This document shows, in pieces, positions 4,293-47,509 of a stretch of 49,998 nucleotides of DNA. The notes beneath the pieces were generated by a model. That model was given only the letters and a program-made list of their open reading frames with translations, had not been told where the DNA came from and ran no database searches. Positions within the stretch are counted from its first letter, which is position 1. Each line of letters opens with the position of its first letter. The position numbers were made by a program, and so were the translations under genes. Source of the stretch: a virus (Duplodnaviria; Heunggongvirae; Uroviricota; Caudoviricetes); IMG/VR virus record IMGVR_UViG_3300015360_001243, positions 1 through 49,998 of that record. One strand, given 5' to 3'.

Positions 4293-5582
4293 ATGAAAAC
4301 TATTGAGATTATTGGTGGCGGTACGGTTTCTCATGTTCGCAACCATCTTGCTCTCACGGCACCTGCCTATGGCAAGACAGCTAAAGTGATTGAAGCTCTA
4401 TGTTGGGAAGAAGCAGTTGACCATTATACTATTAATACCCATCTTACCAAGATGGCTAATAGTGGTAGGGGTTGTTTAGAAACCAACGAAGATGTATCTA
4501 ATCTAGTAGATAGACTAATTGCTAATCCAGATACTCGAATCATCTTCTTCAATCCAGCTCTGGTGGATTATGAGGGCTCCGTTATGATAGATGGGGTTTG
4601 GGAGCATCATTGGCTACAGAATATAGCCGAATCTACCAGCGGTAAGTATGAGCAACGCCTCAAGACTTCTGAGGGACAGAAGATGATGAAGCTAACTCCT
4701 GCCACAAAGATTGTTCAGAAGATTCGTAAAGAACGTAAGGATATCTTTCTAGTTGCCTTTAAGACAACTTGCGGAGCAACTGAGGATGAGCAGTTTTTAA
4801 CTGGGTTGCACTTACTCAAAAGTTCCTCCTGTAACCTCGTTCTAGCTAATGATACCAAGACTAGAACTAATATGATCATTACTCCTGAGCAGGCCCGATA
4901 TACCGTCACGACTAACCGAGAGGCCGCTCTAGAGAGTTTAGTGAAGATGGCCGTATCGAGAGCAGATGCTAAGTTCACTCGATCCACAGTAGTGGATGGT
5001 GATGCCATTCCTTGGAATAGCCACCTAATTCCGTCTAGTTTACGTGTAGTTGTCGATCATTGTGTTGATGAAGGTGCCTATAAAGTTTTCAATGGTGCAA
5101 CCGTTGGACACTTCGCTGTCAAGGTTAATAGTACTGACTTCATTACATCTAAGCGCAAGGCTAACTTCAATAAGCTTGGTGGCGTAGGTATGGTTCTCTG
5201 TCGCGCTGAGACTGCTGATTCGGTTATTGCGTACGGAGCCAAGCCTTCAGTAGGTGGCCAGTCTCAACGAATCATCTTCAAAGATCATCCGGAAGCAGAC
5301 TGCATTGTTCACTTTCACTGTCCTCCTAAGCCGGGCTCAGTGGTTGCAGTAAGGGAACAGCGGTATTTTGAATGTGGTAGCCATGAGTGTGGTAAGAACA
5401 CTAGTATCGGACTCAAAGAGGTAGCCCCAGGGATCAAATGTGTCTATCTAGATAACCATGGCCCCAACATTGTTTTCAACCGTAAGGTTCATCCTTACGA
5501 TGTTATTAAGTTTATCGACGAGAACTTTGACTTGTCCAAAGCAACTGACCAGGTGGATCGTAATGTTCATTCACTTCAATAA
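4293..5582 (+). CDS. Fusion of a CoaB/DFP-like nucleotide-binding domain and a class II aldolase-like domain
   Basis: IIGGGTV, FFNPALVDY, LVAFKTT, NLVLAND match a CoaB-like layout; KPSVG...PEADCIVHFHCP matches the class II aldolase HxH region. Confidence 0.6.
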   Translation: MKTIEIIGGGTVSHVRNHLALTAPAYGKTAKVIEALCWEEAVDHYTINTHLTKMANSGRGCLETNEDVSNLVDRLIANPDTRIIFFNPALVDYEGSVMIDGVWEHHWLQNIAESTSGKYEQRLKTSEGQKMMKLTPATKIVQKIRKERKDIFLVAFKTTCGATEDEQFLTGLHLLKSSSCNLVLANDTKTRTNMIITPEQARYTVTTNREAALESLVKMAVSRADAKFTRSTVVDGDAIPWNSHLIPSSLRVVVDHCVDEGAYKVFNGATVGHFAVKVNSTDFITSKRKANFNKLGGVGMVLCRAETADSVIAYGAKPSVGGQSQRIIFKDHPEADCIVHFHCPPKPGSVVAVREQRYFECGSHECGKNTSIGLKEVAPGIKCVYLDNHGPNIVFNRKVHPYDVIKFIDENFDLSKATDQVDRNVHSLQ

Positions 5583-6773: not shown

Positions 6774-6849
6774 GTCGCGGTACCCAAATGGTTAAGGGGC
6801 CTGTCTGCAAAACAGGTATTCGTGAGTTCGAACCTCACCTGCGACTCCA
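6774..6849 (+). tRNA. tRNA-Cys(GCA)
   Basis: Acceptor GTCGCGG/CTGCGAC, anticodon arm CCTGT-CTGCAAA-ACAGG, U73, encoded CCA. Confidence 0.92.
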
Positions 6850-6861
6850 GAGATTCATTAA

Positions 6862-6953
6862 GGAGATTTGCGTGAGTCTGGCTGAAACGGCTACCCTGGA
6901 AAGGTAGTGGCCCTGTAAAGGGTCCGAGGGTTCGAATCCCTCAGTCTCCTCCA
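6862..6953 (+). tRNA. tRNA-Ser(GGA)
   Basis: CTACC-CTGGAAA-GGTAG, long variable arm, TTCGAAT T-loop, U73 then CCA. Confidence 0.9.
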
Positions 6954-6975
6954 TAAGTAAGATGAAGTATATTAA

Positions 6976-7065
6976 GGAAGTGTGCTAGAGTGGTTTATTA
7001 GACTAGTCTTGAAAACTAGAGGGGATGAAAGTCCTCCGTGAGTTCGAATCTCACCACTTCCTCCA
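6976..7065 (+). tRNA. tRNA-Ser(TGA)
   Basis: GGAAGTG/CACTTCC acceptor, CTAGT-CTTGAAA-ACTAG, long variable arm, U73 then CCA. Confidence 0.92.
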
Positions 7066-7084
7066 GAATAAGAAAGACCTATTC

Positions 7085-8008
7085 ATGATTAAAATTGCAA
7101 CGTTAGTTGGTTGTGCTATTGGAGATGCCCTTGGTAATCCCTTCGAAATGAAGCTTGCCAACTACGAACCACTAGAGAAGTGGGGCGGTAACTTCATTGA
7201 AGGCGGAACCTTCTGGTGGGGCCAGCCCGGTCAGTATACCGATGATACTCTCATGAGTATTGCATTAGGTTCTAGTCTAGTTGAGTTTCAAGGTTTCAAT
7301 CCCGAAGATGTTGGCCAGAAGTATTTAGCCTGGATGGAATCAGGTAATACTCGTGGTATTGGCGGGACAACCGCCAAAGCCCTGACTAGGTTGAAGCTTG
7401 GGGCTACTGTCTTTGAAAGTGGCGTCACACTCAATCCAGATGGCACAGCCTGTGGTGGTAACGGTACCGCCATGAGAGCCTCTCCTATTGGCCTAGTCTA
7501 TCGTCATGATCTACCTAAGCTAATGGAAGTAGCTATTCATGATGCAGTCATCACTCACAAGTCTCTTGAGCCCAAGGTTGGGTCAGTGGCTGTGGCTTTG
7601 GGTACTGCACTTTTAGCCGAGAGATTTGCAGGTCCTAAGGACCTTCTAACTGAAGTAAGTTTTGTATTATCTGATTCTTTGGTAAAAGATAAGATACTTC
7701 AAGCAGCTTTTTTCATTGAACAGGAAACCGATCCTATGGAGGCTTTAGCTCAGATTGGGACTGCTGGTTATGTTCCAGAGACTGTGGGAGCTGCCTTCTA
7801 CTGTCTGGGTGCCACACAATCGTTCCAGGACGCCGTTATCATGGCGGTCAAGGGCGGTGGAGACACTGACACTACAGCGGCGATTGTAGGGGCAATGGCG
7901 GGCACTTGGTACGGTTTAGAGGGCATTCCTCAAGAGTACAAAGATGAAGTTGAGAACTTCCAATTACTTCAAGATTTGACTGACGAACTTATCAATATCG
8001 AGTTATAA
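7085..8008 (+). CDS. ADP-ribosylglycohydrolase (DraG/ARH family), copy 1
   Basis: GCAIGDALG, YTDDT, GNGTAMRASP, GGDTDTTAAIVGA; start moved from 7025, which lies inside tRNA-Ser. Confidence 0.92.
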   Translation: MIKIATLVGCAIGDALGNPFEMKLANYEPLEKWGGNFIEGGTFWWGQPGQYTDDTLMSIALGSSLVEFQGFNPEDVGQKYLAWMESGNTRGIGGTTAKALTRLKLGATVFESGVTLNPDGTACGGNGTAMRASPIGLVYRHDLPKLMEVAIHDAVITHKSLEPKVGSVAVALGTALLAERFAGPKDLLTEVSFVLSDSLVKDKILQAAFFIEQETDPMEALAQIGTAGYVPETVGAAFYCLGATQSFQDAVIMAVKGGGDTDTTAAIVGAMAGTWYGLEGIPQEYKDEVENFQLLQDLTDELINIEL

Positions 8009-8020
8009 GAGATACGTTAC

Positions 8021-8112
8021 GGAGAATTGGCAGAGTGGCCGATCGCGTCTGTTTGCTAAACAGAAGGGGGTGTTAAAGCCTCCCACAGGTTCGAATCCTG
8101 TATTCTCCGCCA
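8021..8112 (+). tRNA. tRNA-Ser(GCT)
   Basis: GGAGAAT/ATTCTCC, TCTGT-TTGCTAA-ACAGA, long variable arm, GCCA end. Confidence 0.92.
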
Positions 8113-8116
8113 TCAT

Positions 8117-8201
8117 GGATGATAAACCAGTTTGGAACTGGCACTGTTTCGAAAACAGATGGACCCCTTGGGTTGGAGTTCGATTCTTCTATTTTCCGCC
8201 A
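8117..8201 (+). tRNA. tRNA-Ser(CGA), best folded as an 8/4 (8-bp acceptor, 4-bp T-stem) tRNA
   Basis: GGATGATA/TATTTTCC (one U-U), T-stem GGAG/CTTC, D-stem CCAGT/ACTGG, loop TT-CGA-AA, GCCA end. Confidence 0.75.
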
Positions 8202-8281
8202 TATGAAAGATAAAGGCGCTACGATTGCATTCATTATTGTTGCTGTAGGTCTTATTACTCTTTTAGAAGTATATTGTAAAT

Positions 8282-8352
8282 AGGCTTGAGCACAGGGTGC
8301 AATGCGGTCTCCAAAGCCGTAGAAGAGGGTTCGATTCCTTCCAGGCCTGCCA
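8282..8352 (+). tRNA. tRNA-Trp(CCA) with miniature D-arm
   Basis: AGGCTTG/CAGGCCT, GCGGT-CTCCAAA-GCCGT, GAGGG-TTCGATT-CCTTC, GCCA end; 71 nt. Confidence 0.8.
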
Positions 8353-9051: not shown

Positions 9052-9381
9052 ATGAGTAATCAAAAGAAACAAGTTAGATCTTTGTTCCGTGACTCCTGTT
9101 ACAAGCGTGATGGGTATCGTTGTGCCATGTGCGCTTACAAATCTTCAGCAGAACATGCTCAGGAAGAATTGGATGCTCATCACATCACGGACAGAAATCT
9201 AATGCCCAATGGTGGATATGTAAGAGAGAATGGCATCTCTTTGTGTCCGGAATGTCACATTAAAGCCGAAGTGTACCATTCAACCGGCGTGGCTCATCCT
9301 GGGTACGCACCAGAGGATCTATACAAAGCAATCAAGTCCACTTTAGAAAAAGCAATTGAAGCGAGTGAAAAATTAGGCTGA
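9052..9381 (+). CDS. HNH endonuclease-family protein
   Basis: CAMC, LDAHHI, NGISLCPECH. Confidence 0.85.
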   Translation: MSNQKKQVRSLFRDSCYKRDGYRCAMCAYKSSAEHAQEELDAHHITDRNLMPNGGYVRENGISLCPECHIKAEVYHSTGVAHPGYAPEDLYKAIKSTLEKAIEASEKLG

Positions 9382-10555: not shown

Positions 10556-11056
10556 ATGGGCGCTTTTTTACTTACAATCCTAATTACTTTCCTAGTTGTA
10601 ACTCTATTTGGGTATATTGTTCATTGGTCTTTGCACCAACCTTGGGTTGGTCGCTTTAACCAAGCACATATGACTCACCATGAAAAGTTGTATCCTCCTG
10701 AGGATTTCACCTCTGAAACCTATCGTCATGCAGGAAAAGATAACACCGTAGTTACTTTTGCTGTAGCCTCTATTCCAATGGTCCTGGCACCTATCGTGCT
10801 GGGATTTTTGGGTATTTTGTCGTGGCCCCTGGTTGTTACAGTGGTGTTAGTTGAGTTGGGACTTGGTCTCCTTCACGACTACATTCATAATGCTTTTCAT
10901 ATTAAAGATCATTGGATGTCCCGAGTCCCGGTTCTGAAAGATATATTCCAGGTGTGGGTGAAGTTACATTATCTTCACCACGTGGATATGACAAAGAACT
11001 ATGGCATCTTCGTGTTTCATTGGGACAGAGTATTCGGAAGCTTCTGGAAGTCTTGA
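10556..11056 (+). CDS. Fatty acid hydroxylase / sterol desaturase family membrane di-iron enzyme
   Basis: His boxes HWSLH, HMTHH, HDYIHNAFH and HYLHH; NYG...WDRVFGS; hydrophobic segments. Confidence 0.85.
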   Translation: MGAFLLTILITFLVVTLFGYIVHWSLHQPWVGRFNQAHMTHHEKLYPPEDFTSETYRHAGKDNTVVTFAVASIPMVLAPIVLGFLGILSWPLVVTVVLVELGLGLLHDYIHNAFHIKDHWMSRVPVLKDIFQVWVKLHYLHHVDMTKNYGIFVFHWDRVFGSFWKS

Positions 11057-12018: not shown

Positions 12019-13017
12019 ATGAGCAGCTTTGATCCGTATAAGACCCTTGAAATCTCGAATAGAGCAAGCTCAACTGTCATCAAGGCGGCATATCACGCCC
12101 TCATAAAACAATTTCATCCTGATTACTCTGGACATGATAAAAGGGCTAAAGAACTGAATGCTGCTTATGAAATTCTTTCTGATTCAGACAAAAAGAAGAA
12201 ACACGATAAGCTGGCCAAAGACCAGAAGGGCACCATTATTGGTAGCTACCGAGTCCTTGAATCAATCGCTGAGGGTGGCTTCGGCTCTACTTACAAAGGA
12301 GAGCATATCCTTACCAAGGATCCTGTCTGCATTAAGCACTGCTCCATGGTATCCCCTGCCCATGATGCAATTCTCATCCAAGAGATGAAGTCTATCTGGG
12401 ATTTGCGCCACTACGCCATGCCCGTCATGCGTGACCTTCAAAGACTAGAAGATGGTAGCCTTGCTCTCATCATGTCTTACATACCTGGTTTCACTCTGGA
12501 ACAGATTGTTGAGAAGGCCGGAAAGATTGAACCAGAGACTACCGCTTGGATTACTGAGCGTATTCTTAATGCTCTACTTTATCTTCATCACCATGGAGTT
12601 ATTCATGGCGACATCAAGCCACAGAACATTATTATTCAACCTAAGACTCACTCGGTAGTTTTAGTTGATTTCGGTTTGGCAATGGTTAGACCGGGAAGTT
12701 CGGATAAGTCGATTGGTTATACACCAGTCTTTGCTTCTCCTGAACAGATTGATGGTAAAGCTTTGCTCCCAGCTTCCGACTATTACAGTCTTGGAATGCT
12801 GATGGTCTATGCTTTGAATGGTGGTAAGAGAATGGAAAAGAAGGAAGTTCCTTCTTCGGTTCCCGATCCAATGGCCAATTTCATTGGGAGCTTGGTCAAG
12901 AAAGATGTTCTTTCAAGACCACAAGACAATCTGTTTGAACAGTTTGTCAAGGTACGTCAGGACTCATTTGGACGTACTCGATCCGGAATGAAAGACATTC
13001 CAGGGTTCAACAGTTAA
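12019..13017 (+). CDS. J-domain (HPD) fused to a Hanks-type Ser/Thr protein kinase
   Basis: DPYKTL...AY...FHPD...LNAAYEILSD, then EGGFG, CIK, HGDIKPQN, DFG, SPE and DYYSLG. Confidence 0.9.
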   Translation: MSSFDPYKTLEISNRASSTVIKAAYHALIKQFHPDYSGHDKRAKELNAAYEILSDSDKKKKHDKLAKDQKGTIIGSYRVLESIAEGGFGSTYKGEHILTKDPVCIKHCSMVSPAHDAILIQEMKSIWDLRHYAMPVMRDLQRLEDGSLALIMSYIPGFTLEQIVEKAGKIEPETTAWITERILNALLYLHHHGVIHGDIKPQNIIIQPKTHSVVLVDFGLAMVRPGSSDKSIGYTPVFASPEQIDGKALLPASDYYSLGMLMVYALNGGKRMEKKEVPSSVPDPMANFIGSLVKKDVLSRPQDNLFEQFVKVRQDSFGRTRSGMKDIPGFNS

Positions 13018-13094
13018 TCTATCAAATATGATAGCTTAAGTCGATATTTGGCACTTAAGCAATCAAAAATGATAGATAAGATCAGGAGAATATC

Positions 13095-14039
13095 ATGTCA
13101 GAAACAGCAGATTACAGCCCAGGCGATTGGAAAGGTTATGACTTCGGAGCAGCTCGTAAGAGTTACGACCAGCATGCAGGTCGAGCGTACGATGCAGCCA
13201 AGGTTGCCAACAAGAAAGCTTCGGACATGGTGCCGAAGCAACTCAAGACCGATAGTCCTGCGCCACTAGTCATTTTGTGTGACGTTACTGGATCAATGGG
13301 TGATTGGCCTGCTACTATTTTCTCCAAGCTTCCCTACCTTGATAACGAAGCTAAGGAATATCTGGGACCTGATTATGAAATCAGTTTCGCTGCAACCGCC
13401 GATCAAGACGACACCTATCCTCTTCAAGTGAGAGAATTCACCAAGGGTCTAGGTCTAGAGAAAGAGTTGAAGGAGTTTGTCATCGGCGGAGGTTCTGGGC
13501 CCGAAGGTGCTCATGAAGCTTACGAATTATCTGCGCTTTACTACGCACGTAATGTGGAGATGCCTAAGGCTAAGCATCCAATCCTCATCTTCATCTCTGA
13601 TGAGCACTTCCATAAGAACATTGAACCAGGTCTAGCCAAGCTAGCTCACATTGATATCGAGTCTAAGATGACCACCAAAAAGGTCTTCGAAGCATTGCGA
13701 GAGAAGTTTGCAGTCTATTGTATTCGTAAGCCTTACGGCGGTGAAGACAAGCAGATTGTCAAGGAGTGGTCTGACGTTTTGGGTGATGACCACATGGCCG
13801 AACTTCCCTCTGCTGACCGAGTGATTGACGTTATCTTTGGTATCTTAGCTAAGGAAACTAACAAGATTGATTACTTCCGCGATGAGATCGAAGATCGTCA
13901 GAGGAAAGATCAAGTTGATACTGTTTACAAATCACTTAAGACTATCCATGCTCTTCCGAAGAATGTGGATGACGGTTCTGGTAAATCGTTGATGCATACC
14001 CATATGAAGGGTGCGAAGACTAAGCGTCTTCTCCCTTGA
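13095..14039 (+). CDS. vWA-like domain protein
   Basis: VILCDVTGSMG MIDAS-like motif; EAYEL, LIFISDE. Confidence 0.75.
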   Translation: MSETADYSPGDWKGYDFGAARKSYDQHAGRAYDAAKVANKKASDMVPKQLKTDSPAPLVILCDVTGSMGDWPATIFSKLPYLDNEAKEYLGPDYEISFAATADQDDTYPLQVREFTKGLGLEKELKEFVIGGGSGPEGAHEAYELSALYYARNVEMPKAKHPILIFISDEHFHKNIEPGLAKLAHIDIESKMTTKKVFEALREKFAVYCIRKPYGGEDKQIVKEWSDVLGDDHMAELPSADRVIDVIFGILAKETNKIDYFRDEIEDRQRKDQVDTVYKSLKTIHALPKNVDDGSGKSLMHTHMKGAKTKRLLP

Positions 14040-14047
14040 GATGAACA

Positions 14048-15064
14048 ATGAGAGATTCAAACGCTAAGGTCCTGATTAACCATCAACTGATTGCTGACAT
14101 GAAAGCAGCGGCTACTATCAGAAGGATCCCGGAGCTAATGGTCACTATGTGTCCAAGCTTCGGGCACTTCAGTAAGTTTGCTAATGACCAAAGAGTTGAT
14201 GGTGTTCGCTTCAATAGTGCTATGATTACCTTGCCTGAGCTTGATACTGAGCTTGGGATCCTCACCACTAAGCCTCCCAAGGCCCCCGTCTACTATGACG
14301 TCAAAGGCCGACAGATGAGAATCTTGAAGGTAGAGACGGTAGATAAGAACCTTGTCTTGACCATTAACCATCCGATTCGAGTGAAGACTCCTACGGTGGT
14401 TCTGTTTAAGGCAGGTGCTGACGTAGCCATGCTCAATCGCATTGAAGAGACTGATCAGGGCCAACGTTTGGTCTTTGATGGTGGTCCGCAATACAATTTG
14501 GTTGCAGGCGAGTCACTTCACATTCGAGACGAGAGCTTCAAGAATCTTCGCGGTTCCACCAAGGAAGACAACGTTTACACTGAGTTGGAGCAAAAGAAGA
14601 TTGTCAAGGTCAAGGCCGCAGGGATCAATCGATTCTTCCTATCTTACGTTGAGAACCAGTACGACGTTGACCTATTTAGAGAAATGGTTGGCAAAGATGC
14701 TGAAGTCTGGCTCAAGATTGAAAGTGTCGCTGGTTTGAAGTATGTCAACCAGACTTTCAAAAAAGAGGATAACCTTGTCCTAGTAGCCGCCCGAGGTGAC
14801 ATGTTTGTTGAGGTCGAGCAGCCTCATCACATCATTCAGGGCCTTAGAGACATCATTAATAAGGATCCTAAAGCTTCTGTTGGCTCTAGGCTTCTACTGT
14901 CGATTGTTGATGCTCCGGTTCCTTCATGTGCCGACCTTCTAGAGATTCAATGGCTACATGACATTGGTTATCGTCGTATGATGTTGTGCGATGAGCTTTG
15001 TTTGAAGGAGCATATGCTCAATGCTGCCGTGGCTTGCTTCAATGGAATTAAAAGTGACCTATGA
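14048..15064 (+). CDS. Divergent pyruvate-kinase-like barrel protein lacking the C-terminal domain
   Basis: GVRFN, YDVKGRQMR, FLSYV, LKIES and AARGDMFVE follow the PK barrel motif order. Confidence 0.75.
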   Translation: MRDSNAKVLINHQLIADMKAAATIRRIPELMVTMCPSFGHFSKFANDQRVDGVRFNSAMITLPELDTELGILTTKPPKAPVYYDVKGRQMRILKVETVDKNLVLTINHPIRVKTPTVVLFKAGADVAMLNRIEETDQGQRLVFDGGPQYNLVAGESLHIRDESFKNLRGSTKEDNVYTELEQKKIVKVKAAGINRFFLSYVENQYDVDLFREMVGKDAEVWLKIESVAGLKYVNQTFKKEDNLVLVAARGDMFVEVEQPHHIIQGLRDIINKDPKASVGSRLLLSIVDAPVPSCADLLEIQWLHDIGYRRMMLCDELCLKEHMLNAAVACFNGIKSDL

Positions 15065-15840
15065 TTTTGATTACTCAACCGAGAGTCGGCAAATCTCACA
15101 ATGAGATTCTGGCTTTACAGATGGCGGCTCGTGAATTGGGGTGGGAAGTGCTTCCCGCACCCTATGGTTGGCGTTTGGATGAAGAGCTGACGGCTAAAGG
15201 CCTCAAAGGAGTTCCTTATGGATCTTGGACCTTCGGCGAAGTTATTGCTCAGCAGATGGGGTGGGAGTTGAAGCGTAATGCTTTTGATTGGCTTGCCAAG
15301 CTTCCCATTGAATATACTAAACGTAAAGTTGAATTCATGACCTTGGGCGAGGCCAAGAAGATTACTGAGCGCAAATTCATTAAGCCGGCCGATGATAAGT
15401 GCTTTGATGCTAAGGTGTATGAGCCTGGCACATTCAATCCAGCTAGTGTCATTGAAGATAATTACCCCACTCTTGTCTCTGATCCAGTTGAATTTACTAT
15501 GGAGTATCGTTGTTTTGTAGAACTTAATAAGTTCGTTCAAAGGCCACAGGTTACTACTTGGTCTAATTATATTTACCATGAACACCTAGCTGACCCGAAA
15601 TATTGGGACGCGGTTCCAGCTAATGCTGGCTGCCTGCCCAATGAATTTGTTAATAATATGTTAAGCATAACTCATAGAAATGGTTTGGAAACTGTTCCAT
15701 CAGTAGTGGATGTTGGTTATATTCCTGGTAAGGGCTGGGCAATTATAGAAACCAATGAGGCGTATGCTTCAGGCCTTTATGGTTGTGATCCGACTGAAGC
15801 CCTATTAGTCATGGGGATGGCCTGCGAGAAATCATCTTAG
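15061..15840 (+). CDS. ATP-grasp protein (R2K/DUF4343-like)
   Basis: FIKP, VSDPV, EYRCFV, VVDVG, IIETN...SGLYG. Confidence 0.8.
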   Translation: MILITQPRVGKSHNEILALQMAARELGWEVLPAPYGWRLDEELTAKGLKGVPYGSWTFGEVIAQQMGWELKRNAFDWLAKLPIEYTKRKVEFMTLGEAKKITERKFIKPADDKCFDAKVYEPGTFNPASVIEDNYPTLVSDPVEFTMEYRCFVELNKFVQRPQVTTWSNYIYHEHLADPKYWDAVPANAGCLPNEFVNNMLSITHRNGLETVPSVVDVGYIPGKGWAIIETNEAYASGLYGCDPTEALLVMGMACEKSS

Positions 15841-15861: not shown

Positions 15862-16284
15862 ATGAGTGCTCTTCTTCTTTTTCTCTGTGTAGTATTGTGG
15901 GGAATAAGTACTTTCCTTAATAGATTATCGGTAGAGCACCTACCCCCTTTATTAATGCAAGTGATTGTTGGATTAGTCTTTGTGGTATACATGCCACTTG
16001 CTTTTAGATTAGAGGGTGTAAGTAACCCTTTAACTTATAAATGGGCAATACATAGCGTTATACTTACAGTCTTGGCCACGATCATATCGATTGCGGCCAA
16101 CGTCTTCTTATATATGTACCTCAAGGGGAACAGCGCAACCGGATCATCAACAATGGTTCTTTCATTGTATCCGGTAGTTACCTTGATTTTATCTTACTTT
16201 TTCTTGCACGAGCAGTTCTCTGGGACCAAAGTTGCTGGAGTTGTTGCAATGATTATTGGTTCAATTCTATTATGTTGGAAGTGA
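15862..16284 (+). CDS. EamA/DMT-family small membrane transporter
   Basis: LWGISTF start; LYPVVTLILSYFFLHEQFS...AGVVAMIIG; about 5 TM segments. Confidence 0.85.
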   Translation: MSALLLFLCVVLWGISTFLNRLSVEHLPPLLMQVIVGLVFVVYMPLAFRLEGVSNPLTYKWAIHSVILTVLATIISIAANVFLYMYLKGNSATGSSTMVLSLYPVVTLILSYFFLHEQFSGTKVAGVVAMIIGSILLCWK

Positions 16285-16287
16285 AAT

Positions 16288-16950
16288 ATGGCCACGCTTG
16301 AAGAGATTGAAGCATCAACCAAGGGATTCCATCTTGGGGTGGATGAGGTTGGTAATGGTGCTCTAGCTGGTCCCGTCGTGGTTGGTGCTGTTCGCGCCCC
16401 CAAGGATTGGTCCCTAGAAGGCCTCAATGATTCTAAGAAATTGTCTGAAAAGAAGCGCGATGCCATGCGCCTCAAGCTGCTTGAATTGATTGAGAAAGGC
16501 GTCATCAGTTACCATTTGGCCGAGCGTTCCAATATTGAAATTGATAAGCTTGGTATTGTTGGCGCTCTGAACGCTGCGTATGTTGAGTCCTTCCACAAAC
16601 TTTACCAACCTGATACCCTAATTATTATGGATGGTATTTTTAAATTTGACAATCTTGGAGTGGATGCTTATGATAAAACCTGGCTTATTAAAGCCGACTC
16701 CAAGATTCCAGCCGTCATGGCCGCCAGCATCTTAGCTAAGACCTATCGTGATGGTTTAATGAAGCAATACCATTTACAGTATCCGGTATATGGATGGGAT
16801 ACTAATGTAGGTTACGGAGGTAAGGCCCACCTTAATGGTATCAAGGAACACGGACCATGTCCTTTGCATAGGTATTCTTATGCGCCAATGAAAAACATTG
16901 AGGTTGCTACTAGTATTCCACAATTAGGATTTGATTTTTATGAGCAATGA
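16288..16950 (+). CDS. rnhB: Ribonuclease HII
   Basis: GVDEVG..ALAGPV, LNDSKKLS, IMDG, KADS, AASILAK, GY. Confidence 0.92.
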   Translation: MATLEEIEASTKGFHLGVDEVGNGALAGPVVVGAVRAPKDWSLEGLNDSKKLSEKKRDAMRLKLLELIEKGVISYHLAERSNIEIDKLGIVGALNAAYVESFHKLYQPDTLIIMDGIFKFDNLGVDAYDKTWLIKADSKIPAVMAASILAKTYRDGLMKQYHLQYPVYGWDTNVGYGGKAHLNGIKEHGPCPLHRYSYAPMKNIEVATSIPQLGFDFYEQ

Positions 16951-17198: not shown

Positions 17199-17273
17199 CG
17201 TGGTATAGCGTATTGGATGTGCGCCCGTCTCATAAGCGGGACAGAGTGGGTTCGATTCCCACTACCACGACCA
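17199..17273 (+). tRNA. tRNA-CAT (elongator Met or lysidine-type Ile)
   Basis: CGTGGTA/TACCACG with C1-G72 paired, so not initiator-like; CCCGT-CTCATAA-GCGGG; ACCA end. Confidence 0.85.
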
Positions 17274-17276
17274 TTT

Positions 17277-17351
17277 GGCCGATTAACTCAGCGGTAGAGT
17301 ATTGCCTTTACAAGGCGAGAGTCGGGGGTTCGAATCCCTCATCGGCTACCA
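17277..17351 (+). tRNA. tRNA-Val(TAC)
   Basis: TTGCC-TTTACAA-GGCGA; canonical D and T arms; ACCA end. Confidence 0.93.
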
Positions 17352-17358
17352 GTTTCAT

Positions 17359-17433
17359 GGGAGATTAGCTCAATGGTAGAGCATCGGTTTTACACTCCGA
17401 AGACTTAGGGTTCGATCCCCTTATCTCCTACCA
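17359..17433 (+). tRNA. tRNA-Val(TAC), second copy
   Basis: TCGGT-TTTACAC-TCCGA (U-U at 31-39); ACCA end. Confidence 0.88.
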
Positions 17434-17441
17434 AATACCAT

Positions 17442-17515
17442 GGGCGGTTAACTCAATGGCAGAGTGCTAGTATGACTTGCTAGCTACAGGGGTTCGATTC
17501 CCCTACCGCCTACCA
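17442..17515 (+). tRNA. tRNA-Val(GAC) with atypical loop
   Basis: CTAGT-ATGACTT-GCTAG (A32, U37, U38); GGGCGGT/ACCGCCT; ACCA end. Confidence 0.8.
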
Positions 17516-18161: not shown

Positions 18162-18469
18162 AAGAGTCTGAACTAAAACTTTTAGAGACGTTAGTTTCTC
18201 TTTTTGAAAGAGAAACTATGTTCTCTTCCCGCCCAGAGTATGATCACCCTTATTATAAAACAGTGGTGGCTTGGGGCAAGCAAAGACCGAATGACATTAT
18301 TCCTTGGTTATTGAATCATATCAAGACCAACTGGCATTGGTGTGGAGCTTTATGGATGATTGTGGGCAAAGAAAAAGCCCCGCATGTTCCAGAGGAACAT
18401 GCAGGGCGGGGGGTCTTTATCTCACAAGCTTGGACCACATGGGGTCAAGCTAATGGGTATATATTATAG
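18158..18469 (+). CDS. Hypothetical protein
   Basis: ATGA coupling; HPYYKTVVAWG...IIPWLL. Confidence 0.6.
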   Translation: MKESELKLLETLVSLFERETMFSSRPEYDHPYYKTVVAWGKQRPNDIIPWLLNHIKTNWHWCGALWMIVGKEKAPHVPEEHAGRGVFISQAWTTWGQANGYIL

Positions 18470-19366
18470 TTGAGTCCAAGTGAAGGCTGAACCGTCAAAT
18501 GCCCAAGTATCTTGGAACGTATCGTTACCGTTAGTTCCACCCATAAGAAGAGTCTTGCCGGTTTGTGCATCATAGCACATCTGAGCGCCCTTACGAGCTG
18601 ATGGAGAAGTTGCTGGGGCTCTCTTGGTCCATGCAGTTGCACCAGTGTTTAGAGTCCAAGTTTCATTGTTTACATCGTATCCATTACTTCCACCGAATAG
18701 AACGTATAGGTTGTTAGCTACGTTGTAGACTAAGCTTGCACCTTCACGGGCTGGAGGTGGGGTAGTTGGAGATGCTTGAGTCCATTGGGTACCGTCGAAG
18801 GTCCAAGTGTCACCTAGTAACTCAGCGCCGTTTTTTCCACCGAATAGAGCAGCCTTGGTTACTCCGCCAGCCAAACCGAAGTCAGTTCTAGCAGATGGGT
18901 TGTTGGTAGAAGCGGCCTTGGTCCAGGTAGCAACGTAGCCGTCCCATACCCAAGTCTCATTAGTAAGGTCAAGCATAGATGCTCCACCGAACATAACAGT
19001 CTTTAGAGATCCTGAAATAAGGGCCATCTCAGCTTGGAAGCGAGCGAAAGGAACAGTTGCTGGGGCTAGCTTTGCCCAAGTAGTTCCGTTCCAGGACCAA
19101 GTGTCTTGGCAAGGGCCAGCGGCTTGTTCACGTCCACCGAACATGATTACGTTGTAACCATCGTAAGATAGAGCGAAGTCAGAACGCTTTGGAGTTGGTG
19201 AGGTTGCTGGAGCTGCTTGAGTCCAATCAGTACCGTTCCAAGTGAAAGTAGCATTTTGTAGCTTAGCAAATCCTGGAAAACTACCAGTATCTAATAGGGC
19301 TACTTCATTGGCTCCACGTTGGGCCATGGCAGAAAAAGAGCAACGAAATGGGTTATTAGCAGGCAT
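18464..19366 (-). CDS. Kelch/beta-propeller repeat protein
   Basis: Five repeats of FGG...DTW.(W/F)(N/D)G..W...P...P..R. Confidence 0.85.
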   Translation of the reverse strand: MPANNPFRCSFSAMAQRGANEVALLDTGSFPGFAKLQNATFTWNGTDWTQAAPATSPTPKRSDFALSYDGYNVIMFGGREQAAGPCQDTWSWNGTTWAKLAPATVPFARFQAEMALISGSLKTVMFGGASMLDLTNETWVWDGYVATWTKAASTNNPSARTDFGLAGGVTKAALFGGKNGAELLGDTWTFDGTQWTQASPTTPPPAREGASLVYNVANNLYVLFGGSNGYDVNNETWTLNTGATAWTKRAPATSPSARKGAQMCYDAQTGKTLLMGGTNGNDTFQDTWAFDGSAFTWTQL

Positions 19367-22985: not shown

Positions 22986-23059
22986 GCGGGGTTGGCATAT
23001 TGGCTGTGTCCTAGCCTTCCAAGCTAGTCAAAGGAGTTCGATTCTCCTACTCCGCTCCA
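22986..23059 (+). tRNA. tRNA-Gly(TCC)
   Basis: CTAGC-CTTCCAA-GCTAG; U73; CCA. Confidence 0.92.
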
Positions 23060-23087
23060 GGTAAGATGATAATTGAAGTAAGTGTAA

Positions 23088-23162
<75 letters not shown>

Positions 23163-23170
23163 AGACGAAT

Positions 23171-23251
23171 GCCGATGTGGATTACATGGTAAACAATCAG
23201 GCCGCAATCCTGATCTAGCTGGTTCAATTCCAGCTCGGAAACTCGCAAGAG
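23171..23251 (+). pseudogene. Degenerate tRNA-Cys(GCA)-like element
   Basis: TCAGG-CCGCAAT-CCTGA and GCTGG-TTCAATT-CCAGC arms; only 4 bp of acceptor (CCGA/TCGG); no CCA, followed by a CTC-GCAA-GAG hairpin. Confidence 0.55.
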
Positions 23252-23291
23252 GATCTTAAATAAAAATCTCATCATTTTAGTCGTCTATTAA

Positions 23292-23365
23292 GCGGTTGTA
23301 ATTCAATGGTAGAACTTGTGGTTGCCATCCACAGAACATCGGTTCGATTCCGATTAACCGCTCCA
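23292..23365 (+). tRNA. tRNA-Gly(GCC), second copy
   Basis: TGTGG-TTGCCAT-CCACA; GCGGTTG/TAACCGC; TCCA end. Confidence 0.92.
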
Positions 23366-25304: not shown

Positions 25305-25378
25305 TGGAGAATCGTCTAACGGCAGGACAAGCGACTCTGACTCGCTTTATCTAGGTTCGAATCCTTGTTCTCCAGCCA
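25305..25378 (+). tRNA. tRNA-Gln(CTG)
   Basis: TGGAGAA/TTCTCCA, AGCGA-CTCTGAC-TCGCT, G73, CCA. Confidence 0.93.
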
Positions 25379-25384
25379 CAAACT

Positions 25385-25458
25385 TCTGGAATCGTCTAAT
25401 GGTAGGACGGGGGACTCCGACTCCCCAAATATTGGTTCGAGCCCAATTTCCAGAACCA
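25385..25458 (+). tRNA. tRNA with CCG anticodon (nominally Arg) on a Gln-like D-arm
   Basis: TCTGGAA/TTCCAGA, TCGTCTAATGGTAGGAC D-arm, GGGGA-CTCCGAC-TCCCC, A73, CCA. Confidence 0.85.
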
Positions 25459-35861: not shown

Positions 35862-37271
35862 ATGAAAACGAATAGATTAAGTTACTTGTTTGACGCCGAC
35901 AGCTATAAGGTTTCCCATTACTTGCAGTATCCTCCGGGAACTACAAGCATGTTCTCGTACATTGAGAGCCGAGGTGGTGAATACAATGAGACCGTCTTCT
36001 TTGGGCTACAGTATTATCTTAAGGAGTATCTTACTCACCGCGTGACAGTGGAAGAGGTTGAGAAAGCCAAGGAGTTTTATGCGGTTCATGGAGAGCCTTT
36101 TAACTACGAAGGCTGGCTGTACATTGCTAAAGACCTTAAAGGTAAGCTGCCGGTTCGTATCCGAGCCGTGCCTGAAGGCAGCGTGGTCTCTACTCATAAC
36201 ATTCTCGTCAGTATTGAATCGACTGATCCTAAAGTCTTTTGGATTGTGTCCTGGATTGAAACTATGCTACTTAGGGTCTGGTATCCTATCACAGTAGCTA
36301 CCAGGAGCCGCTACATCAGACAAATCATTCTAGAAGCCCTGGAAACCTCGGCGGATGATCCTCAAGGTGAAATCGCATTCAAGCTGCATGACTTTGGTAG
36401 CCGTGGCGTTAGTAGCCAAGAATCTGCCATGATTGGTGGTGCATCTCACCTTGTCAATTTCATGGGCAGTGATACTGTTGCAGGTGTCCTGATGGCTAAT
36501 GAAGTTTACAACACGCCGATGGCAGGGTTCAGTATCCCTGCGGCCGAGCACAGCTCCATTACCTCTTGGGGTAAAGAGAATGAAGTTGATGCTTATCGTA
36601 ATATGCTCAAGCAGTTTGCTAAGCCCGGCGCCTTGGTGGCCTGCGTGTCTGACTCCTATGATCTTTGGAATGCATGTACTCACCTTTGGGGAGAGGTACT
36701 TCGTCAGGAAGTCATCGACTCTGGTGCAGTTGTCATCATCCGTCCTGACTCTGGGCATCCTCCGGCTGTTGTTCGTAAGTGTGCTCATCTTCTTGCTGAG
36801 AAGTTTGGTTACACCCTTAATAGCAAGGGCTACAAGGTTCTCAACAATGTCCGCATTATTCAGGGTGACGGCATCAATGAACACTCTATCCGAGCTATCT
36901 TGAATGACTTGCTGGATGCAGGATTCAGCGCAACCAACATTGCATTCGGAATGGGCGGAGCTTTGCTTCAGATGCTTAACCGTGATACGCAGAAGTTTGC
37001 CATGAAATGTAGCCATATTTTCATTGGAGATAAGTCGGTGGATGTCTTCAAGAATCCTGTGACTGACCCTGGCAAAATGAGCAAGCCGGGCCGATTGGAC
37101 CTAGCTTTTGTGGATTCTGGTCCTAATATTGGAGAATACGAGACGGTCCCTTTGTTCGATGATGAAATTGCTCACAAGCGTAGCGTAATGCATACTGTCT
37201 ACGAAAATGGCGAAATCATTAACGAAACGACCTTTGAAGAAGTTCGTGCTCGTGCTAAAGCTGCCAAGTGA
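35862..37271 (+). CDS. nadV: Nicotinamide phosphoribosyltransferase
   Basis: DSYKVSH, HDFGSRG, AAEHS, VSDSYD, RPDSG, QGDG, FGMGG, RDTQKFAMK. Confidence 0.93.
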   Translation: MKTNRLSYLFDADSYKVSHYLQYPPGTTSMFSYIESRGGEYNETVFFGLQYYLKEYLTHRVTVEEVEKAKEFYAVHGEPFNYEGWLYIAKDLKGKLPVRIRAVPEGSVVSTHNILVSIESTDPKVFWIVSWIETMLLRVWYPITVATRSRYIRQIILEALETSADDPQGEIAFKLHDFGSRGVSSQESAMIGGASHLVNFMGSDTVAGVLMANEVYNTPMAGFSIPAAEHSSITSWGKENEVDAYRNMLKQFAKPGALVACVSDSYDLWNACTHLWGEVLRQEVIDSGAVVIIRPDSGHPPAVVRKCAHLLAEKFGYTLNSKGYKVLNNVRIIQGDGINEHSIRAILNDLLDAGFSATNIAFGMGGALLQMLNRDTQKFAMKCSHIFIGDKSVDVFKNPVTDPGKMSKPGRLDLAFVDSGPNIGEYETVPLFDDEIAHKRSVMHTVYENGEIINETTFEEVRARAKAAK

Positions 37272-46144: not shown

Positions 46145-46647
46145 ATATCTTTGCAGTTGATGAAAGCCCTAAAGAAGCGGCATATGCACTTTGCGATAAG
46201 CATGTAATTAAGATGATTCTGGAAAGTACTCAAATGCTTTCCACCGTCGCTCAGCTTCGTGGGTTTGCCGGCCCTTATAAGCCTACCCACGCGAAACATC
46301 CATGTACGCAATGGGTGGCTAGTCATCCAGCTAATTGGGCATGGTTAGTTCGACATGCGACTTTTATGGCTTACGAGTATAGTGACAGATATGGCAAGCG
46401 CCATAAATGTCATGATTTGATTGATGAGTTGGATTCTCGCTCATCCATTATTTGGGCCAACACGCAGTTTGAGGATCATTCAGATTACTATGCTGAACAC
46501 ACTCCTTTTGAGCAGTGTATGCCCGATCAATATAAGCGAGAAGATGCCATCGAGGCGTATCGTGCTTATTACATCGGCGAGAAAGCCAGATTCGCTACCT
46601 GGAAAATGAACAAACCTTCTTGGTTTCCGGAGATTCAACATGTCTAA
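46141..46647 (+). CDS. Pyrimidine-dimer DNA glycosylase/endonuclease V-like protein
   Basis: MNIF...AAYALCDKHVIKMILE..QML, YKPTH.KHPC. Confidence 0.8.
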   Translation: MNIFAVDESPKEAAYALCDKHVIKMILESTQMLSTVAQLRGFAGPYKPTHAKHPCTQWVASHPANWAWLVRHATFMAYEYSDRYGKRHKCHDLIDELDSRSSIIWANTQFEDHSDYYAEHTPFEQCMPDQYKREDAIEAYRAYYIGEKARFATWKMNKPSWFPEIQHV

Positions 46648-47509
46648 CGATTCACTTGGCGATAGAATGAAGTCCTACGAGGACTGTTACCGTACTCAAC
46701 TACCAATCCGCATGCCACTCATTCTACGAATTGACGGCAAGGCTTTCCACACTTATACTAAGGGCTGCAAGCGGCCCTGGGACTCCAACCTTGTGGAATG
46801 TATGAATTTGACTGCCATTGAATTGTGTAAACGAGTTCAGGGTTGCCAGGTTGCTTACGTTCAATCTGATGAGATTTCTTTGCTGATAACTAACTACGAA
46901 GATATCGATACTCAGTCTTGGTTCGATAATAACCTACAAAAGATGGTTAGTATTTCTGCGGCTCTTGCGAGCGTAACTTTCACAATGAACTCTCACCTTA
47001 TTTGGGTGCCTGAGAAGATTGATCCAAGTTGCGATCCTATGAGTGAATCTGATTTCAACAAGCCGGCCTATTTCGATAGTCGCGCTTTTGTCATGCCCAA
47101 GGAAGATGTCAACAACTACTTCCTATGGCGTCAGCAGGACGCAACCCGAAACTCAGTTCAAATGCTAGCTCGTAGCCTGTATTCTCACAAGGAGCTTGAG
47201 GGTAAGAACAACTCTGCACTCCAGGATATGTGCTGGTCTAAAGGCCAAAATTGGAATGATGTACCGACCTCTCAAAAGAGAGGTCGTTGTATCGTTAAAG
47301 TCAGCTCTGTCAAGGAAGGAAAGAACCCTAAAACGGGTGAAGTCTTCTCCGCAGAACGCTCTGATTGGGTTGTAGATAACGATATCCCCGTATTTTCTCA
47401 GGATAGAAACTATATTGAGAAATTCGTTTATCCTCTTAGAGAGGAAGTCGGTATTAAACCCGGCGAACTAGTTGGGATGTCAACGTTAGGACCGATTTAT
47501 GGAAAGTAA
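46640..47509 (+). CDS. Thg1-like 3'-5' nucleotidyltransferase (tRNA-His guanylyltransferase family)
   Basis: RIDGKAFH, YVQSDEISL, FDSRAF, WRQQDA.RNS. Confidence 0.92.
   Translation: MSNDSLGDRMKSYEDCYRTQLPIRMPLILRIDGKAFHTYTKGCKRPWDSNLVECMNLTAIELCKRVQGCQVAYVQSDEISLLITNYEDIDTQSWFDNNLQKMVSISAALASVTFTMNSHLIWVPEKIDPSCDPMSESDFNKPAYFDSRAFVMPKEDVNNYFLWRQQDATRNSVQMLARSLYSHKELEGKNNSALQDMCWSKGQNWNDVPTSQKRGRCIVKVSSVKEGKNPKTGEVFSAERSDWVVDNDIPVFSQDRNYIEKFVYPLREEVGIKPGELVGMSTLGPIYGK

Follow-up and report, generated by a model that had tools for sequence, protein, structure and literature searches.

Three adjacent genes in a huge-phage genome very probably form an accessory cassette of their own. They encode a Ser/Thr kinase with a J domain, a divergent von Willebrand factor A (vWA) protein and a paralogue of pyruvate kinase (PK), which we refer to as PK-like. 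The genes lie in the first 50 kb (49,998 nucleotides, hereafter the window) of the 153-kb IMG/VR virus record IMGVR_UViG_3300015360_001243. CheckV estimates the completeness of this record at 35%, which implies a huge phage with a genome of roughly 400 kb or more. An earlier note on this DNA grouped the three genes with the ATP-grasp gene that follows them, and proposed a four-gene system combining phosphotransfer with peptide tagging. We argue that the cassette is a trio and not a quartet.

All four genes are on the plus strand. The J-domain and Hanks-type Ser/Thr kinase (12019-13017, 332 aa) comes first, the vWA protein of family phrog_2971 (13095-14039, 314 aa) is second and PK-like (14048-15064, 338 aa) is third. 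An ATP-grasp protein of the R2K.2 clade, a predicted peptide or amide ligase (15061-15840, 259 aa), is adjacent and outside the cassette. There are 77 nt between the kinase and vWA genes and 8 nt between the vWA and PK-like genes, while PK-like and R2K share a 4-nt ATGA overlap. The open reading frames (ORFs), spacing, overlap and domain calls of the earlier note were all confirmed by ORF coordinates, Pfam and predicted structures. This layout says little by itself. Since 183 of the 197 ORFs in the 153-kb record are on the plus strand, the shared orientation of the four genes is uninformative. A promoter scan around them did no better than shuffles, with nothing convincing that delimits the four genes, and a terminator scan around them found none at a meaningful place. 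The signal that rises above chance is the conservation elsewhere, as a block, of three of the four genes, and not the local layout.

Distribution of the trio and of the R2K gene

At the DNA level the 3.8-kb region matched no GenBank phage, so protein-level searches were needed. Loci were fetched with the PK-like protein and an alignment of it, and all four window proteins were then mapped onto these loci. The order kinase -> vWA -> PK-like is kept in 14 of 14 other non-redundant viral loci, at 40-85% identity. The clusters holding these three genes (c0, c1 and c2) are the only ones common to all 15 non-redundant viral loci, the window included. The huge phages that bear the trio range from 200 to 510 kb, and the viral loci include the 485-kb huge phage LR745208. 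The trio is also present in 44 of the 46 loci with adequate upstream flank from genomes labelled as candidate phyla radiation (CPR) or DPANN. The kinase is inverted in four of these 44. The other two genome loci have, in one case, vWA and PK-like without the kinase and, in the other, PK-like alone. The neighbourhood conservation search that the earlier note proposed thus bears it out for its first three genes.

The genes around the trio differ throughout the roughly 58 other loci. Since the three genes stay together and in order while their flanks change, we argue that the kinase, the vWA protein and PK-like function as a unit. Occasionally an ORF stands between them, either a LAGLIDADG or homing endonuclease or a small ORF (L020, L004 and L012 are examples). 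Pairwise distances of the kinase and of the vWA protein correlate (r = 0.73). The genome loci with the trio span GC contents of 0.28-0.57, and their flanks are cellular (FemAB, a TPR kinase, PhoU, an AddA-like helicase-nuclease and a Mur ligase). One can imagine that every contig labelled CPR or DPANN is a mis-binned phage. This is rejected for at least some of them, given the cellular flanks and a cassette found on a 1.24-Mb contig that also carries a canonical PK, nucleoside diphosphate kinase (NDK) and PurA. Judged from these sequences, the cassette appears to be common to huge phages, CPR bacteria and DPANN archaea and to move among them as a block. Translational GTPases (elongation factor G, EF-G, and BipA) are near PK-like in about 7 of 62 loci, which is too few to build on.

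The fourth gene has a different distribution. Its family assignment is clear, with a match to Pfam R2K_2 at 1.3e-23 (84 bits, cut-off 26.2) over profile positions 1-144 of 147, and to R2K_3 at 4e-13. ATP-grasp enzymes of the R2K clade (CDC123, R2K.2 and R2K.3) are predicted to attach amino acids to proteins (Burroughs, Zhang & Aravind 2015, PMC4431377), and the family has already been noted in caudate and jumbo phages (PMC4431377, PMC7824862). The four-gene model would have R2K ligating amino acids onto the vWA protein or another component of the cassette. The predicted activity and the ATGA overlap make this attractive, and in L011 and L014 R2K does follow the trio at a distance of 2.3 kb. 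However, those are the only two of the 60 other trio loci with R2K within 6-8 kb, and it is missing from the remaining 58. Even there it comes after EF-G, which separates it from PK-like in L011/L080 and in L014. The reverse comparison gives the same answer. Four of the five loci centred on R2K (L078, L079, L081 and L082) keep the same flanking genes and lack the trio. The window's own flanking genes can be recognized in L078 (FAhyd, EF-G, R2K, RNase HII), L079 (up127, R2K, RNase HII) and L081 (up146, EF-G, R2K, RNase HII). This implies that the trio and R2K were gained or lost independently inside one syntenic block.

R2K fits the R2K_2 family but differs from the four-gene picture in its company: in this lineage it travels with the phage EF-G and RNase HII, in a syntenic block with them, and is an unrelated neighbour of the cassette. 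No EF-G was found in the 153-kb record. The absence of the gene that separates PK-like from R2K in the nearest relatives explains why the two overlap here. The earlier note held that its model should fall if the genes did not co-occur elsewhere. Genes 1-3 do co-occur and gene 4 does not, so the four-gene model is largely refuted by its own criterion. What stands of the proposed module is the kinase/vWA/PK-like unit in about 58 loci. The peptide-tagging half is unsupported because R2K is independent of the trio, and we regard a four-gene tagging system as extremely improbable.

R2K.2 is found directly downstream of the phage EF-G in four related huge-phage contigs (L078:3618-6753, L080:3657-6720, L081:3373-6720 and L014:8950-12042). 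CDC123, the eukaryotic R2K member, acts on the translational GTPase eIF2-gamma. By analogy the phage R2K, which adjoins EF-G, may modify or assemble it.

The kinase, vWA and PK-like proteins

The kinase has a J domain at residues 5-63 (Pfam DnaJ, 7.8e-14), with the HPD motif at H33-P34-D35, followed by a Hanks kinase domain at residues 77-275 (Pfam Pkinase, 2.1e-34). Pfam recognizes no domain in its last 55 residues. The VAIK lysine, alphaC glutamate, HRD-type aspartate, asparagine, DFG aspartate and APE glutamate are all present. K106, E122, D198 (in HGD), N203 and E242 are kept in 57 of 57 orthologues and D217 in 56 of 57. The kinase is thus predicted to be catalytically intact. The J domain is a different matter. 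HPD is retained in 34 of the 57 orthologues, and a few have no J domain at all. Since the catalytic residues are invariant and HPD is not, selection in this type of cassette seems to act on phosphotransfer and not on stimulation of Hsp70.

The vWA protein is too divergent for the usual profiles. It has no match in Pfam, in PADLOC (E <= 0.01) or in NCBIfam, and is assigned through phrog_2971 (1.9e-21). Its family has 807 representatives at 50% clustering. Run against the PDB, the family profile finds no sequence at E <= 1, and weak matches to VWA_CoxE, VWA_2 or VWA_4 occur in just 1-2 of 58 members. Structure is more informative. An AlphaFold2 model built on an alignment of 58 diverse relatives has a pLDDT of 91.4 and a vWA domain at residues ~53-260. 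Its Foldseek matches include integrin beta-I domains and NorD, a component of the NorQD complex (E 2e-7). With VIA-align the Z scores reach 14.8 and all of the 50 best matches are vWA domains. The metal ion-dependent adhesion site (MIDAS) motif is D63-x-T65-x-S67 plus D169. D63, S67, D103, D169, W225 and R268 are invariant in the family and T65 is kept in at least 90% of members, which argues that the metal site is intact. Outside the domain, the protein has a conserved peptide at its N terminus and, at the C terminus, a helical extension (R268-Q269) and a tail that is disordered. The vWA gene is duplicated in tandem at L029, L066, L083, L058 and L056. Some distant relatives (P0249, P0251 and P0262) are fused to U-box, RING or MIZ zinc-finger domains, and at least one of these fusions is in a context that looks eukaryotic, with Med21 and a split FAA hydrolase.

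PK-like matches the Pfam PK barrel PF00224 at 1.6e-7 (31.1 bits, cut-off 30). It scores 28.5 bits against the NCBIfam PK equivalog TIGR01064, where the cut-off is 306. A profile of the family, which has 867 matches, finds exclusively PKs in the PDB, and identity to PKs is ~15-18%. The AlphaFold2 model (pLDDT 87) finds PKs with Foldseek at E 5e-16, over the A and B domains. VIA-align gives a Z of 24.2 with the Leishmania PK. With the 321-aa PK of Entamoeba histolytica (PDB 8iw2) it gives 23.7, aligning 292 residues almost end to end. Thus PK-like has the A domain, a TIM barrel, with the inserted B domain, and it lacks the C-terminal allosteric and tetramerisation domain (PK_C). It ends at the last barrel helix, where canonical PKs from the same genomes extend ~130 residues beyond, and the VIA and Foldseek alignments stop at about chain residue 350.

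The active site was examined by aligning PK-like with canonical PKs taken from the same cassette-bearing genomes. PK-like keeps the R and N of RLN, D-x-K-G-x-x-x-R, K-I-E, A-R-G-D and the glutamate of MLSGE. R54, N56, D84, K86, R91, K223, E225, R249, G250, D251 and E316 are invariant in the family, and S280 stands where PK has its catalytic threonine. The residues of the metal and phosphoenolpyruvate (PEP) sites therefore look to be retained. Changes that are invariant and specific to the family lie near the nucleotide site (S76->A, H77->M and S361-G362->C-D, and a G-E-S that aligns with the lysine of the PK B-domain loop), and T327->S belongs to the same set of changes.

A canonical PK was also present in 5 of 5 cassette genomes tested, and the three that were fetched are 465-483 aa. 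This implies that PK-like is a specialised paralogue and not the glycolytic enzyme, and it rejects the idea that PK-like is the organism's sole PK. The idea that it stands in for a missing NDK is also unsupported, as NDK was found in 5 of 5 cassette genomes. A gene annotated as 'pyruvate kinase' in one of these genomes or phages should accordingly be left out of any count of glycolytic PKs.

Distant members of the vWA family, at ~28-35% identity, keep other company. L075 has the J-kinase, vWA and PK-like followed by one gene and a metallophosphoesterase. L077 has the metallophosphoesterase in third place, after Pkinase and vWA and before HAD_SAK_2. L083 reads PP2C, one gene, kinase, vWA, vWA, PK-like. 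A gene resembling adenylosuccinate synthetase (PurA-like) follows kinase, vWA and PK-like in L084 and sits beside the trio in L030, L056 and L058. L085 has PurA-like, a gene of the phosphoribulokinase (PRK)/uridine-kinase family, J-kinase and vWA. In L086 an AAA+ ATPase takes the place of the kinase before vWA, PK-like and PurA-like. A related set is found in about 200 Cluster C mycobacteriophages, which have a fusion of a J-like domain with a degenerate kinase, then vWA, a small gene and a PurA-like ligase. HPD is present in the fusion, and HGA and DWC replace HGD and DFG. In one of them (L073, Mycobacterium phage Pleione 150769-154542) gp265 carries the annotation Ser/Thr kinase, gp266 belongs to the same family as the window's vWA protein and gp268 is PurA-like. 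Since both the upstream and the downstream partners vary among these loci, vWA is therefore the constant element. A kinase, pseudokinase or AAA+ ATPase upstream can be thought of as the 'driver', and an enzyme that handles nucleotides or phosphate downstream as the 'output'. In L058, moreover, a PurA-like gene separates two vWA/PK-like pairs, and BipA lies downstream.

Possible function and rival explanations

In our view the best explanation as a whole is a trio cassette whose PK-like output is controlled in trans, with R2K unrelated to it. We hold this tentatively, at somewhat short of an even chance. PK-like would be the catalytic output and would use PEP for phosphoryl transfer, with a nucleoside diphosphate or a related nucleotide as the most likely acceptor. 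It has lost the domain that regulates and tetramerises ordinary PKs, and its control would instead be exerted in trans. Through its MIDAS site the vWA protein would bind PK-like, or a partner of PK-like, and the kinase would switch this interaction by phosphorylation. Where HPD is intact, as in the window, the J domain could bring in host Hsp70 to remodel the complex, but this link is optional. In a phage the result would be a supply of nucleotides or energy that escapes the allosteric control of the host. This specific mechanism, a PEP-dependent phosphotransfer enzyme governed by a kinase and vWA pair, is a possibility that we would not call probable. We infer how the proteins bind, what the substrate is and which way control runs, whereas the conservation, the intact catalytic sites and the paralogue status are observed. 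The distant loci are consistent with it. The PurA-like neighbours in L030, L056, L058, L084-L086 and the Cluster C mycobacteriophages, together with the PRK gene of L085, suggest a nucleotide theme. The swap to AAA+ in L086, the added PP2C in L083 and the metallophosphoesterase in third place in L077 support the idea of a regulatory pair.

Several observations count against this proposal. The residues around the nucleotide site are altered (G-E-S, H77->M and S361-G362->C-D), so ADP or GDP may not be the acceptor. NDK is encoded by 5 of 5 cassette genomes, so the step from NDP to NTP does not obviously need another enzyme. Both points weaken the nucleotide theme. PurA-like is not adjacent to the trio in the window. 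The phage's own PurA-like gene is a divergent one at record 73501-74709, outside the window and ~60 kb from the cassette; it shares ~27% identity with those found next to vWA and PK-like in other loci, and no second copy of vWA or PK-like is beside it. Recruitment of Hsp70 cannot be essential to the family, since ~40% of orthologues have lost HPD and a few have no J domain. No fused long form of PK-like (593-2000 aa) was found, and no fusion of PK-like with vWA or with the kinase, although this is weak evidence. The enzymatic activity, binding and phosphorylation within the cassette are all predictions. A complex prediction for PK-like and vWA scored 0.00 in two runs, which had no controls, and we count it neither for nor against binding.

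It is worth considering whether the cassette is instead a conflict or stress switch like TerY-P. A stand-alone anti-phage form of the TerY-P triad was reportedly described by Gao et al. in 2020. According to the summary of Anantharaman, Iyer & Aravind 2012 in PMC10542128, the triad consists of a TerY-like vWA protein, a Ser/Thr kinase and PP2C, so the earlier note drew on an established theme when it paired vWA proteins with such kinases in conflict and stress operons. Under this explanation the kinase and vWA protein would be a phosphorylation-dependent sensor. PK-like would be the effector or signal generator, for instance by depleting PEP or ATP or by producing a signalling nucleotide. In phages the switch might serve counter-defence or superinfection exclusion, and in ultra-small symbionts it might serve conflict. 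The resemblance is real. A MIDAS vWA gene beside a Hanks-type kinase is the architecture of TerY-P (PMC10542128), a third phosphate-handling enzyme is present, and the cassette is mobile across domains and phages in varied contexts. PP2C even accompanies kinase, two vWA genes and PK-like in L083, and a metallophosphoesterase accompanies kinase and vWA in L077. The kinase domain also scores against the defence kinases MAD6 and PD-T4-6 in PADLOC, but this is generic Hanks-domain similarity, and neither vWA nor PK-like has a PADLOC match. No match to PP2C_2 was found in the 153-kb record, which is only ~35% of the genome. A tblastn search with the L083 PP2C found nothing in the flanks of the type-1 loci, and PP2C was seen only in L083. 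The flanks in the genomes look like housekeeping genes (FemAB, AddA-like helicase, PhoU, Mur ligase) and not like defence islands. Enzymes that act on nucleotides (PurA-like and PRK) recur as partners, and nucleases or other typical effectors do not. There are also differences in the proteins themselves. The third gene is a PK paralogue where TerY-P has PP2C. The kinase has an N-terminal J domain where that of TerY-P has a C-terminal zinc ribbon or OB fold. The vWA protein belongs to a separate family, and the hosts are huge phages, CPR and DPANN. Of four TerY-P features tested the cassette has the kinase beside vWA, in 58 other loci, and lacks a TerY-type vWA, PP2C and the zinc-ribbon or OB tail. 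Failing three of the four, it resembles the triad without being a member, and we consider a TerY-P-like switch unlikely.

Another line of reasoning starts from enzyme activases. Pairs of AAA+ (MoxR) and vWA proteins serve particular enzymes, such as CbbQ/CbbO with Rubisco and NorQ/NorD with nitric oxide reductase, and BchI/BchD is a further pair. By analogy the vWA protein could be an adaptor that docks PK-like by its MIDAS and hands it to an ATP-driven remodeller, either Hsp70 recruited by the J domain or, in the variants, AAA+, and the kinase domain would be secondary. A MIDAS vWA adaptor beside an ATP-driven chaperone function, next to an enzyme that it possibly serves, would be the common pattern. 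L086 has precisely such an AAA+ gene upstream of vWA, PK-like and PurA-like, NorD is among the Foldseek matches of the vWA model, HPD is intact in the window and its close relatives, and pairs of MoxR and vWA are known in jumbo phages (PMC7824862). However, the cassette has no AAA+ gene and has a protein kinase, predicted to be active, instead. Its chaperone link would be indirect, through J domain and Hsp70, and is dispensable in ~40% of orthologues. It is the catalytic residues of the kinase that are invariant, while HPD is found in 34 of 57. No Hsp70 gene was found in the 153-kb record (only ~35% of the genome), though that of the host could serve. An activase is thus quite unlikely. The simplest rival is an ordinary auxiliary glycolytic PK that stands beside the kinase and vWA genes by happenstance. 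PK is the only family matched by both sequence and fold, the catalytic motifs of PK (EC 2.7.1.40) are kept, and 8iw2 makes a naturally short PK without the C-terminal domain a precedent. This does not account for a gene order conserved in ~58 loci with differing flanks, for an extra copy linked to vWA beside the canonical PK in 5 of 5 cassette genomes, for a TIGR01064 score so far under its cut-off (28.5 bits against 306) or for the invariant family-specific substitutions around the nucleotide site. We find it very improbable.

The proposed regulation of PK-like in trans by a kinase and vWA pair has a further parallel. Archaeal ArnA and ArnB with the kinases ArnC and ArnD, that is, a cytoplasmic vWA protein with Hanks kinases, make a phosphorylation-controlled regulatory complex, and the likeness to the cassette is by description. 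What sets the Arn system apart is its FHA partner and its role in controlling the expression of the archaellum; a PK-like enzyme and a J domain, both present in the cassette, are absent from it. VIA-align matched the vWA model to the ArnAB structure 8s05, among others.

The pairing of vWA with kinases and the R2K enzymes of phages are already known. In the literature searched we found no description of the kinase/vWA/PK-like trio. The cassette is a widespread variant on the kinase-vWA triad theme with an unusual enzyme member. A bolder version of our proposal, which we think improbable as it stands, is that the trio is a new kind of trans-regulated phosphotransfer machine. PEP would phosphorylate an acceptor other than ADP, either a nucleotide intermediate shared with PurA-like ligases or a protein. 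The MIDAS vWA protein and the chaperone-linked kinase would gate its activity or its access to substrate. Huge phages and CPR/DPANN symbionts would exchange the machine to control nucleotide supply in the economy of another cell. If the cassette does function as a unit, PK-like would be the first PK-family enzyme seen to be regulated by a dedicated kinase and vWA pair rather than by its own allosteric domain. The distribution of the cassette would then mark an accessory function common to organisms that depend on the metabolism of another cell. The cassette is also a handle on a much larger set of modules built from vWA, J-(pseudo)kinase, PK-like and PurA-like proteins, and the Cluster C mycobacteriophages are cultivable and genetically tractable relatives of it.

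Other genes of the window

The cassette's neighbours are an HNH endonuclease (9052-9381) and a fatty-acid-hydroxylase-like protein (10556-11056) upstream. Downstream are a membrane protein with a single EamA domain (15862-16284), RNase HII (16288-16950) and a Kelch-repeat beta-propeller on the opposite strand (18464-19366). The window has 15 tRNA genes in four clusters (6774-8352, 17199-17515, 22986-23365 and 25305-25458). They comprise Cys x2, Ser x3, Trp, Met, Val x3, Gly x3, Gln and Arg, a complement typical for a huge phage with its own translation-support genes.

An ORF of 429-443 aa (phrog_35624) with a weak match to class II aldolases is at 4293-5582, 6.4 kb upstream of the cassette. 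In L017 its homologue sits between the kinase and vWA genes (L017:5103-6434). A nicotinamide phosphoribosyltransferase gene (phrog_448, E 7e-149) is at 35862-37271, ~21 kb from the cassette. The phage has two Thg1-like genes (tRNA-His guanylyltransferase or tRNA 5'-end repair), one in the window at 46640-47509 and one at record 96942-97733. In the more distant huge phages L001, L004, L005 and L016 a Thg1-like gene comes 0.2-1.5 kb after PK-like.

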